A stretch of DNA of 64,000 nt, taken from positions 29,016,001 to 29,080,000 of the forward strand of contig OX597842.1 of the NCBI GenBank assembly GCA_951406725.2, in the 5' to 3' direction. The position numbers were made by a program, and so were the translations under genes. The stretch comes from Octopus vulgaris (taxonomy: Eukaryota). Shown one piece after another: positions 22,274 through 49,762 of this stretch (positions are counted from its first letter, which is position 1; every line of letters starts with the position of its first letter). The notes under the pieces were generated by a model. The model had not been told where the DNA came from and ran no database searches. It was given only the letters and a program-made list of their open reading frames with translations.

Positions 22274-22470
22274 TCACTTTTCTTCTGATAGTAGACATTG
22301 AAGTGCCTCAGAGCATTCAGCTTCCTCAAGAGCTTTTCTGAGTGTTCGCATCTCTGGATCACAACTTGTGGACCATGTGTGTAGCATCTGGAAGCCCTGC
22401 TCTTCAATGTTATAAGGATTATTATACCTGATATTCCCCAGTTTGATATTTTTGATTCCTAAATTCCTGC
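22274..22470 (-). CDS. Terminal coding exon, rest of the Death domain ([33 protein letters not shown]...[22 protein letters not shown])
   Basis: ttgcag acceptor, TGA at 22274-22276; Death-fold pattern R.LG......I...NP....EQ...ML..W....L..AL. Confidence 0.88.
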
Positions 22471-47800: not shown

Positions 47801-49762
47801 AGTAACTGAACAGGGGAAGAGCTATAAAGGGTCAAAACCTCAGAAATAATTGTGTAGATTCTAAATATATCAGACTCGATTTTAGTTTAGTATTCCCTGG
47901 TAAAGCTCATGAAATTCTACACTGTGTTATCACTGATGCCTGGCATAGTAGCACTTTCATTTAATGCTATAATGATGAAGGAGATTTAAATGATGGTGAG
48001 AGAAGAACAGGATGTTTGAAATGAAGCATGGATCTTCAGATGTCATATGTCTGGCGAAACAGGAACATAAGATCTACTTGGAAAAGAATGAAAGCAAATC
48101 TACAAGAAAGGTGTAGAGCACAGGTAAATCAAGGTGAAAAAGGCTTAGAAAGACTGTTTAGTTCATGCTAAGCTCAAGGAAAAGATTGAAAATCTATTTA
48201 TGTTAGTCACTGAATCTATTACAAAGTAATTACTTGTAATTAGACATCTGTGACATCTTTGGAACGACACCAATCACAACTAAATATGAGCAACTATGGA
48301 AAAGTAGACACAAATGAAAAGAAACAATGAAGAAAATAAGAAATATTCTGAAAGTAGGGATCAGAATTTTGAGCCTAAATGAGGCAGCAGCAGTGTCAGG
48401 GCTTACATTAGTTTGTAGCCATACAATATGTAAGAAGGTGTGAGTGGTTCATACACAACTGTATTACACCTGTACAAAAAAACACTATCGACTTCACCTT
48501 GAGGAAAACACCTACCCTCACTAAACTGGCAGACATTCACCCACCATTGAAATACATGTATGATGGTCATCAAGAAATTAAAGGATGTTTTTTCTGCATT
48601 TCACCATTTGTCAGCTGTCTTCCCTCCCAAATTAAAAGCCACATTTTCTGGTCTCTTACCTAGAGTATCTCTATAGATTTTACAAAATCATTCCACCCAC
48701 CACTCCCTAACCATGATGGTTCTATACCAGTGCTTCTTAAACTTTTCAATTATGGCCCTTTTTTATTTACTAAGAGTTTTTCAATGCCCCTTTTCTTGCT
48801 ATGATTCAATATCTCTGATTTTTAATGTTCTCACGGGTCAGATTAATTTACCTTTGGGTCCTAGTCTTGACATGGGTGACTACTTACCACAGCACCACCC
48901 CACAATAAGTGAACATTTGATGCATCACCACTTCACTTTAGTTTCTGATCCAAACTCAACTACACATTGAGTTTTATATATTTGTACGACCATAGCCACC
49001 TTGGCTCCCTGGTCCTTATAAAATTTTCCACAAACCCTACCCAAGGGTAGCACTACTCTCTTAGGAAGCCCTGTTTTATAATTCTTGCTGATAGTGTCCT
49101 ATCTGCTGACTACCAGCCAGTCATTCTAACTTCCAATATTTCAATTATGAAGTAAAAAGTCATAAACAACCATCATCTTTGTCCCTTTGGGTATCTTTCT
49201 CTATTCAATGAGCCCCAGAACAGTTCCATAAAACCGGTTCAAGCAGAGGTCTGATTCCTACGTGACTCCCCAGTGTTTTGGTTATGTTTGACAACTTCTG
49301 CAAAAGAAATACTGTAGCCCATGACATCGGTAAAACCTTTAACTGTGTATGGCAAGAGAATTTCTTGACAAAGTCATCATTTATCTATTGGGTCCATCTG
49401 TCCCCCATCTCTTGGACTGAATATTTCCTGCCAGAATACTCCATTGCAGTGTGTAAGGATGGGTTTCTCTCTCACTCACATTCCATCAATTCTGGCATAC
49501 CTCATTGTCTGGTTGAATATTTATAAAAAGTGACAATGATGAGGATTAGAGGAAAGAGGTAAAGAAAGAAATGAAATATTAAGGACAAATATATCTGGTT
49601 ATTTAGGAACATTTAATATTGTGTATAAAATAATAAACAAACATTTAACATTGAAGAAGCAATATAAAGTAAACTTACTTTATCAGGATTTTCTTTGATA
49701 AATCGTTTCACATCTTTAAAGTCCCCATTCCGAATCTTGCTTATAATCTCATTTACATCCAT
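22274..49762 (-). CDS. Spliced gene: ankyrin-repeat + RING-HC + Death-domain protein (Mind bomb/MIB2-like C-terminal half fused to a Death domain); putative E3 ubiquitin ligase, about 603 aa with all exons
   Basis: Exons 49679-49762, 46441-46592, 42572-42728, 41658-42118, 39884-39920, 36808-37017, 34848-35026, 31012-31151, 29702-29752, 29213-29284, 25379-25450, 22274-22470. All have AG/GT boundaries with matching phases (0,2,0,2,0,0,2,1,1,1,1) and sum to 1812 nt with no internal stop. TPLH-type ankyrin motifs, [42 protein letters not shown]eath domain. Confidence 0.88.
22830..23210 (-). mobile_element. Decayed RTE-like LINE 3' fragment in the last intron
   Basis: ..[21 protein letters not shown] motifs. 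Confidence 0.5.
23398..24090 (-). mobile_element. Mariner (DD34D-like) transposase remnant
   Basis: [25 protein letters not shown]; related terminal fragment at about 56030-56150. Confidence 0.8.
24105..24218 (+). mobile_element. Very short 5'-truncated LINE 3' end with target-site duplication
   Basis: [24 protein letters not shown]...* plus (GAT)n tail, flanked by TGTTATTTCC at 24095-24104 and 24219-24228. Confidence 0.75.
25379..25450 (-). CDS. Coding exon 11, Death-domain helices 1-2 ([24 protein letters not shown])
   Basis: tatttcag acceptor, gtgagt donor, 72 nt; L..VA..LG..W pattern continues in phase into the terminal exon. Confidence 0.85.
26030..27140 (-). mobile_element. Decayed RLE-type (HERO/NeSL-like) LINE reverse-transcriptase fragment
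   Basis: [43 protein letters not shown]. Confidence 0.6.
29213..29284 (-). CDS. Candidate exon 10, 72-nt phase 1-1 paralogue of the Death-domain first exon ([24 protein letters not shown])
   Basis: tatttcag acceptor, gtgagt donor, open frame; same length and QQV|G end as 25379-25450. Confidence 0.6.
29702..29752 (-). CDS. Candidate exon 9, 51-nt phase 1-1 paralogue of the Death-domain first exon ([17 protein letters not shown])
   Basis: tatttcag acceptor, gtgagt donor, open frame; flanking introns homologous to those of 25379-25450. Confidence 0.6.
31012..31151 (-). CDS. Coding exon 8, RING-HC finger ([46 protein letters not shown])
   Basis: C-x2-C-x11-C-x-H-x3-C-x2-C-x7-C-x2-C; ccacag acceptor, gtaaga donor, 140 nt. 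Confidence 0.92.
32700..33250 (+). mobile_element. Highly decayed CR1/L2-like RT fragment
   Basis: [29 protein letters not shown] remnants. Confidence 0.5.
34848..35026 (-). CDS. Coding exon 7 ([59 protein letters not shown])
   Basis: ttgtag acceptor, gtaagt donor, 179 nt; resembles the split last ankyrin repeat of Mind bomb proteins (A..A.FL...GA.L...N.....PLDL). Confidence 0.88.
36808..37017 (-). CDS. Coding exon 6, ankyrin repeats ([20 protein letters not shown]...[12 protein letters not shown]...ILDE)
   Basis: caaag acceptor, gtaagt donor, 210 nt, phase 0-0. Confidence 0.88.
37750..38760 (-). mobile_element. RTE-like LINE fragment (AP-endonuclease to RT linker) in intron 5
   Basis: [59 protein letters not shown]. 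Confidence 0.75.
39392..39437 (-). ncRNA. Decayed minimal hammerhead motif in intron 5
   Basis: Minus strand GACAC-CTGACAA-A-GGCTG(10 nt)CAGCC-GAAACATT-GTGTT; stems I and II intact, core G8 mutated. Confidence 0.55.
39884..39920 (-). CDS. Coding exon 5, 37-nt exon ([12 protein letters not shown]) completing an ankyrin repeat
   Basis: ctttcag acceptor, gttagt donor; bridges phase 2 to phase 0 and supplies the second helix of the repeat. Confidence 0.8.
41658..42118 (-). CDS. Coding exon 4, about 4.5 ankyrin repeats including three near-identical 34-aa units
   Basis: tttag acceptor, gtaagt donor, 461 nt; (T)[16 protein letters not shown]...DVNAV three times, then LTPLHLA and [11 protein letters not shown]. 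Confidence 0.93.
42572..42728 (-). CDS. Coding exon 3, ankyrin repeats ([31 protein letters not shown]...)
   Basis: tttcag acceptor, gtcagc donor, 157 nt, phase 2 to 0. Confidence 0.9.
42940..43545. repeat. MITE-like element with direct and inverted subterminal repeats
   Basis: ttcagatgg..attatatcggaattt at about 42975 and 43125; inverted at about 43310 and 43475. Confidence 0.6.
46441..46592 (-). CDS. Coding exon 2, ankyrin repeats ([19 protein letters not shown]...[10 protein letters not shown])
   Basis: ttcag acceptor, gtaagg donor, 152 nt; ankyrin consensus [13 protein letters not shown]. Confidence 0.9.
49679..49762 (-). CDS. Coding exon 1 ([28 protein letters not shown])
   Basis: aaag|acATG acceptor, 84 nt, gtaagt donor; resembles a first, capping ankyrin repeat and joins exon 2 in phase 0. 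Confidence 0.75.

Follow-up and report, generated by a model that had tools for sequence, protein, structure and literature searches.

The closest described relatives of the gene considered here are the Mind bomb ligases. MIB1 has three RINGs, and the available portion of a preprint on the human protein ascribes its activity solely to RING3, the ankyrin and RING1-2 region being inactive and dispensable; dimers are more active than monomers, and deletion of RING1-2 raises signalling (bioRxiv 10.1101/2024.03.01.582834). For MIB2, the accessible text of another study reports that the second RING is needed for cFLIP ubiquitylation, that a first-RING mutant is still active and that the mammalian protein restrains TNF-induced death (PMC7815719). 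A different point of reference is offered by fungal NLRs such as Podospora Pa_3_8560 which, as far as the available text describes them, contain near-identical ankyrin repeats in variable number, exist in many copies and show positive selection on the concave face, alongside a NACHT NTPase and an N-terminal effector (PMC4986451). The present analysis concerns a minus-strand gene in a 64,000-nucleotide stretch of the Octopus vulgaris genome, referred to as the window (C29 29,016,001-29,080,000; C-numbers denote chromosomes of that genome), which is one of approximately 80 family copies, at least 79 of them spaced, in this species. On sequence criteria it is derived from MIB2, yet two hallmarks of Mind bomb ligases are missing from it, the MZM/REP modules and the C-terminal catalytic RING. 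The favoured reading, to which a probability of about 55% is assigned, is that the gene encodes a variable intracellular ankyrin sensor that would signal through recruitment of a death-domain adaptor, with the RING as an accessory.

Read from the window sequence, the gene extends from 49762 to 22274 through 12 exons, all with GT-AG introns and matching phases, and its 1812 coding nucleotides specify 603 amino acids and a stop, with no internal stops. The phase-consistent exon chain encoding ankyrin repeats, a RING and a death domain, proposed in an original prediction made from the letters alone, is upheld by these 603 residues and by Pfam and fold support, and the ten to eleven ankyrin repeats claimed there correspond to ten counted by sequence, preceded by a degenerate cap at the N-terminus. 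At this locus the automatic O. vulgaris model (P0001, 468 amino acids) omits exons 1, 9, 10 and 11 and part of exon 6. The features are as follows.

Upstream exon, 3' end (5' limit not fixed): 54017..54035, minus strand; non-coding, matched by 16-letter contig ends, GT donor next; in-frame TGA 7 codons ahead of the ATG.
Exon 1: 49679..49764, minus strand; 2 untranslated bases, ATG at 49762, degenerate N-cap repeat with an NPDK end (HPDK in MIB2).
Exon 2: 46441..46592, minus strand; ankyrin repeats (Pfam).
Exon 3: 42572..42728, minus strand; ankyrin repeat with variable binding face (Pfam, entropy, ratio of nonsynonymous to synonymous differences, pN/pS).
Exon 4: 41658..42118, minus strand; array of 34-amino-acid ankyrin units, 4 in the window gene, with hypervariable binding-face positions.
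Exon 5: 39884..39920, minus strand; second helix of a repeat.
Exon 6: 36808..37017, minus strand; ankyrin repeat and first half of the split last repeat, boundaries as in MIB2.
Exon 7: 34848..35026, minus strand; second half of the Mind bomb-type split repeat, and C-cap.
Exon 8: 31012..31151, minus strand; intact C3HC4 RING with a CPKCK end, equivalent to MIB2 RING1.
Exon 9: 29702..29752, minus strand; linker exon of 51 nt, phase 1-1, inside a short tandem unit; no LC8-type QT motif in the window copy.
Switch zone: 29616..29766, no strand assigned; subfamily identity changes between the 5' and 3' sides of the gene.
Exon 10: 29213..29284, minus strand; linker exon of 72 nt, phase 1-1, in a diverged duplicate of the unit of exon 11 (self-match 69% over 553 nt).
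Exon 11: 25379..25450, minus strand; death domain helix 1 and start of helix 2, phase 1-1.
Exon 12: 22274..22470, minus strand; remainder of the death domain and stop, 3 residues shorter than in the closest paralogues.

The variable part of this architecture is, by the comparisons made among paralogues, the ankyrin face and not the death domain, a point that the original prediction missed, as it did the size of the family and the recombinant nature of the window copy. The number of 34-residue units in exon 4 is 2, 3, 4, 5 or 9 in the 22 complete paralogous exons found among 30 loci. Within the repeats the core is conserved and the face varies, and entropy reaches its maxima at -1, +1, +9 and +10 around the G-x-T-P-L-H motif, that is, on the hairpin and the inner-helix face. 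Values of pN/pS were derived from pairwise counts in 47 disjoint pairs drawn from 94 exon 4 units, with the face defined as six positions that we take to be the DARPin design positions. The ratio on the exon 4 face is 2.26 (N 211, S 27, p 7.6e-6) versus 0.90 elsewhere, and 2.18 (p 3.5e-4) when pairs are picked on all sites, and these counts place the excess of amino-acid change on the ankyrin binding face. The same pattern of face diversification is described for fungal NLR ankyrin repeats in the accessible part of the study cited above (PMC4986451), and the family would have in common with NLR/STAND receptors a repeat sensor region under diversifying change, gene conversion being a caveat. 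Unlike the fungal proteins, the octopus family has no NTPase and bears its death domain at the C-terminus; neither NACHT nor NB-ARC was matched by Pfam in the ten exons scanned or in a full-length colinear protein from O. sinensis.

That O. sinensis protein (P0010, 607 amino acids), which is 65% identical across the whole 603-residue model, also clarifies the domain assignments. In single exons of the window gene, Pfam detects ankyrin repeats in exons 2, 3, 4 and 6 and zf-C3HC4_3 in exon 8 (E 1.4e-8), whereas Death on exon 12 alone stays under the cut-off (E 0.012) because helix 1 resides in exon 11; in P0010 Death rises over the cut-off (E 1.8e-8). An AlphaFold2 model of P0010 (mean pLDDT 82.7) displays a stack of helical hairpins up to residue ∼425, a disordered linker at 475-518 and, from 522 onward, a helical domain modelled with confidence. 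When the C-terminal model was used in a fold search, death domains occupied ranks 1-8 (TM by target 0.61-0.76, E 0.003-0.008), with none of the matches reaching E 0.001; the whole model retrieved ankyrin stacks only, the MIB1 ankyrin structure 8v0e being matched both by fold and by sequence, and an ESM Atlas best match of 0.83 is treated as a lead only. A family profile compared with the PDB found RIPK1 as the best match for the death domain (E 1.8e-8), followed by PIDD (E 1.1e-7), and residues 339-384 of human MIB1 8v0e for the exon 7 region (E 1.5e-7). The death fold suspected in the last two exons is thus borne out by Pfam on P0010, the PDB profile and the fold search.

Introns, identity and trees all place the origin of the gene in MIB2, which narrows the Mind bomb descent proposed earlier. 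The O. vulgaris MIB2 gene lies at C26 2.51-2.54 Mb and, of the eight introns between exon 1 and the end of the RING exon, seven agree in position and phase with those of the window gene, as read from splice contexts; the exception is the offset intron that follows exon 4. Across exons 6-8 the window gene is 48.5% identical to MIB2 and 29.8% to MIB1. The ankyrin stack with its split last repeat and the first RING are likewise those of MIB2, from which the family differs by lacking MZM, ZZ, REP and the last RING and by possessing a death domain, an extra variable ankyrin array and ∼80 copies. A MIB1 origin was rejected: the ankyrin region and RING class are similar, but MIB1 has three RINGs, its exon 6 equivalent is split in two where MIB2 has a single exon, and identity is the lower of the two. 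Matches to REP (PF18346) are confined to C13, which harbours MIB1, and to C26, where several REP-containing MIB2-like genes accompany the canonical MIB2 between 0.73 and 2.54 Mb, a cluster indicating that full-length MIB2 has expanded too.

Living intermediates illuminate how the C-terminus may have been exchanged. Genes encoding ankyrin repeats and two RINGs, with no REP match, are found at C27 36.36, C30 3.17 and C20 45.05 Mb and in O. bimaculoides (P0019, P0060). They share clade and exon layout with the window family and differ from it in keeping the last RING, 69-75% identical to that of MIB2, and in having no death domain; the C27 gene starts at the same exon 1 methionine as the window gene. 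All 29 entries without MZM/REP form one clade (SH-aLRT 99), from which the C20 gene splits off first. None of the 12 matches that the MIB2 last RING has in the genome lies at the window locus. These intermediates demonstrate replacement of the last RING by the death domain, as had been proposed, and the exchange was frame-compatible, since the MIB2 last-RING exon and all death and linker exons start in phase 1. The likely order is truncation of MZM/REP, then replacement of the RING exon by death exons, then expansion. Of two trees, one gives monophyly of the death-domain genes a support of 44/59 and the other implies three changes; a one-clade test, in which monophyly was rejected (p-AU 7.5e-124), carries no information, since P0017 and P0027 were scored as outsiders although they nest within the group.

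The 5' end is consistent with the loss of MZM/REP. Contigs in runs X1 and X10 depart from exon 1 at 49767, and their 16 loose letters match 54035-54020, just before a GT donor; no ATG occurs in the 120 nt read of this upstream exon. As the next paralogue carries an upstream exon that is 85% similar, the 5' contigs may derive from a paralogue. A tblastn search found neither MZM nor REP in the 46,252 nt reaching to the next paralogue, whereas 9 REP matches came from a control region. Upstream exons supplying MZM/REP are ruled out by the stop-bearing non-coding first exon, by this search and by the restriction of REP to C13 and C26, and the absence of these modules, suspected originally, holds.

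Splicing was followed in contigs from four sequencing runs, of presumed RNA origin and covering introns too, where absence of cover in some runs is uninformative. The RING exon, exon 8, is joined to exon 9 in all four runs, two of them exactly and two with variant letters, and two of the four show exon 10 joined to exon 11; among the joints displayed there is neither an exon 11-12 joint nor an exact exon 9-10 joint. The expected transcript linking RING to death exons is supported at the 8-9 and 10-11 joints and lacks the other two among those displayed. The exon 11-12 joint is present in O. sinensis models, and in broken intronless copies on C1 a stretch of 963 nt covers ankyrin, RING and death domain and spans 7 junctions. 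The paralogues are near-identical, so the contigs document splicing of the family and not expression of the window copy.

The size of the family dispels any notion of a single-gene oddity. Genomic matches number 123 for the last exon (from 148 scored candidates) and 124, MIB2 included, for exon 7 (from 138). For 90 of the 124 exon-7 matches a death exon follows downstream. Its distance is 6-48 kb in 79 cases, located chiefly on C29 and C31, and no more than 0.6 kb in the other 11, which belong to intronless arrays; these paired counts are lower bounds and include pseudogenes. Among the 103 exon-7 matches outside arrays, 76 have a death exon at most 30 kb downstream on the same strand, and each of the other three orientations accounts for 3. 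The intronless copies form tandem arrays of a broken 3' half on C1 at 102.71-102.73 Mb and 216.93-216.97 Mb (L033, L034), with a unit of ∼3.6 kb at 216.9 Mb; from their structure they are processed copies amplified afterwards. Relatives exist in both O. sinensis and O. bimaculoides. Automatic annotation hides the family behind labels like 'MIB2-like' and 'ankyrin-3-like'. The last protein search returned 13 Octopus family entries and 3 canonical MIB entries. The lineage restriction suggested at the outset agrees with the 30 entries looked up out of 150 representative matches, in which every family member is from Octopus and one Argonauta match is a RIPK1/IMD-like adaptor, not a family member; squid, cuttlefish and Nautilus were not searched directly.

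This adaptor leads to the likely source of the death domain. Among the proteins compared, the closest death domain of identified non-family origin (46.6% identity) belongs to octopus P0096, a kinase-less protein of 300 amino acids named 'RIPK1' at NCBI, with Death as its sole Pfam match; a RIPK1/IMD-like adaptor is also present in Argonauta. In P0096-type genes at C26 12.8 Mb the death domain is cut by the same phase-1 intron, the first exon measuring 75 nt. The adaptors differ from the window gene in having a short low-complexity N-terminus, with a stretch that we take to be RHIM-like (there is no Pfam match), and neither ankyrin repeats nor a RING. Five death-exon matches cluster at C26 12.79-12.94 Mb (L169-L172; P0096, P0113, P0114), and the two examined are kinase-less RIPK1/IMD-like adaptor genes. 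The death exons of the family may have been taken from such an octopus adaptor. Elsewhere, the same two-exon death cassette sits on a gene for a low-complexity protein at C2 151.94-151.95 Mb (L179-L180; P0126), where the intron resembles that of the window gene (score 146 versus a null of 41), and an O. bimaculoides model of an LRR adhesion-GPCR (P0087) ends in a similar death-domain tail. The two-exon cassette looks mobile.

The RING matches MIB2 RING1 by exon and sequence, as had been surmised, and its eight C3HC4 zinc ligands are intact. Fifty of 80 RING matches were sampled, the best 30 and 20 chosen across chromosomes, and setting aside 6 from MIB2-like or two-RING genes left 44, not every one of which is tied to a death exon. 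Twenty-nine are intact, 6 have aspartate for histidine and 9 miss a cysteine, making 15 defective. A proline and a basic residue around the last cysteine are features of active RINGs; both occur in 12 of the 29 intact sequences, and one or the other is missing in 17. The corresponding motif reads CPKCK in the window copy, CPICR in the sister subfamily and CIQCK in octopus MIB2 RING1. One subfamily (L135, L149, L150, L154, L156, L166) has aspartate for the zinc-binding histidine while keeping CPxCR, and may be a functional variant; some subfamilies may also have gained ligase activity. The designation 'E3 ligase' is the weak part of the original prediction, and unsupported as stated, because the last RING, required in mammalian MIB1/2, has been lost and the retained one is defective in 15 of 44 relatives. 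The family retains the very part that a working mini-MIB1 discards.

According to the sensor reading, binding of a foreign or altered protein to the ankyrin face would lead the death domain to recruit a death-domain adaptor, possibly the RIPK1/IMD-like adaptor, FADD or CRADD, with NF-kB activation or cell death as the presumed output and the retained RING as a probable accessory. An immune or cell-death role, as originally proposed, is likewise presumed. As for partners, the parts available of one study report FADD and CRADD in a cephalopod and did not find PIDD and TRADD in lophotrochozoans (PMC11463336). A more elaborate version, offered tentatively, regards the family as an NTPase-free counterpart of NLRs built from the dispensable middle of MIB2: some 80 DARPin-like sensors with a death domain from the octopus's own RIPK1/IMD-like adaptor, whose ligand-driven clustering would seed an adaptor filament. 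Diversification would then combine change in repeat number, selection on the face and crossovers in linker repeats that re-pair sensor and death domain.

Several observations weigh against the sensor reading. The six face positions were set from DARPin design after the raw sequences had been seen. Exon 3 gives a weaker signal (pN/pS 2.52, p 0.023; 2.0, p 0.13 with the other pairing), and off the binding face the ratio is 0.9-1.3, with 1.2 on 38 changes in the death exon; values so near 1 suggest that constraint may be weak on much of the family. Gene conversion among repeats renders the pairs non-independent which, with a background near 1, limits the p values. The last exon of the window gene is covered in only one of the four runs, at 94% identity. 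Similarity of the intron flanks to those of the adaptor genes is weak (donor side 43 versus a null of 39), so that the donor and the direction of transfer are presumed. Finally, the window RING is intact and carries both the proline and the basic residue (CPKCK), as do 12 of the 29 intact RINGs, and the best PDB matches of family RINGs are the active RINGs of cIAP, MYLIP and XIAP.

These last features favour the foremost alternative, an active rewired E3 ligase, or a TRIM-like one, in which the ankyrin face would pick substrates or the death domain would dock to a receptor complex; death-domain clustering would stand in for the MIB coiled coil and switch RING1 on. The greater activity of dimeric over monomeric MIB1, described in the accessible part of the preprint (bioRxiv 10.1101/2024.03.01.582834), is in keeping with such a scheme, and so are the 29 intact RINGs among 44. 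It is nevertheless judged unlikely: the RING required in MIB1/2 is gone, 15 of 44 are defective, and 17 of the 29 intact ones are without the proline or the basic residue.

A decoy or brake is a poorer prospect. Here the death domain would cap RIPK1/IMD-like or FADD assemblies and damp signalling, while where the protein sits or when it lets go would depend on the ankyrin part. Its resemblance to the adaptor's own domain (46.6%) would suit this role, as would the restraint of TNF-induced death by mammalian MIB2 (PMC7815719) and the rise in signalling upon deletion of MIB1 RING1-2 (bioRxiv 10.1101/2024.03.01.582834), both as given in the portions available; the diversification of the ankyrin face and the ∼80 copies would be left unexplained.

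The remaining alternative touches on the integrity of the window copy itself. From exon 7 to ∼29,616 the DNA matches five paralogues with a CPKCK-type RING at 95-99% identity, and the death domains of all five are of a different type; from 29,766 downward the matching sequences are four CPICR-subfamily paralogues, mostly at 91-99% identity, and the switch falls in the tandem unit containing exon 9. By these identities the gene as assembled is a recombinant of two subfamilies, re-pairing sensor and death domain. None of the contigs listed bridges the switch zone, and mis-assembly is therefore possible. In the linker, 12 of 27 relatives exhibit a K-x-V/T-Q-T motif, which we take to be the LC8 docking consensus; LC8 docking was discarded for the window copy, whose linker has no such motif. 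Mostly neutral birth-and-death duplication in repeat-rich small chromosomes, the window copy perhaps being silent or a mis-assembled recombinant, is the least probable reading: a background pN/pS near 1, frameshifted or stopped neighbours, the broken intronless arrays on C1 and the unspanned switch zone speak for it, but a 603-codon frame open across 12 exons with good splice sites, a repeat core conserved while the face changes, retention of the family in three species and the existence of spliced contigs speak against it.

No description of the family was found in the literature searched, which excluded most subscription papers and the supplements where octopus gene-family tables may list it; in term searches of the text available, MIB is unmentioned in PMC13218726 and PMC9334734, and Mib appears in PMC10970066 only under Notch signalling.

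Other elements of the window include a near-perfect inverted repeat at 61189-63414 (arms of ∼990 nt at 99.5%, spacer of 247 nt), which is either a young foldback element or an assembly artefact, and degenerate palindromic elements at 42855-43631, in the intron between exons 2 and 3, and at 13991-14422. LINE-like fragments, pieces of Tc1/mariner-like transposases and C2H2 zinc-finger remnants were recognized by eye at 2022-2930, 57198-58162, 14607-15053, 23485-23703, 1373-1570 and 17320-17505.

The findings point to a RIPK1/IMD-like adaptor in octopus, as against the statement, in the part available of one study, that the Imd adaptor was not found in molluscs (PMC9835746). The living intermediates provide a clear case of stepwise domain shuffling, in which a Mind bomb part of unclear role was kept and both essential parts were dropped. 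Cephalopods are not known to have adaptive immunity. Around 80 genes that combine a variable ankyrin face with a death domain represent a concrete candidate for the way in which they diversify intracellular recognition.

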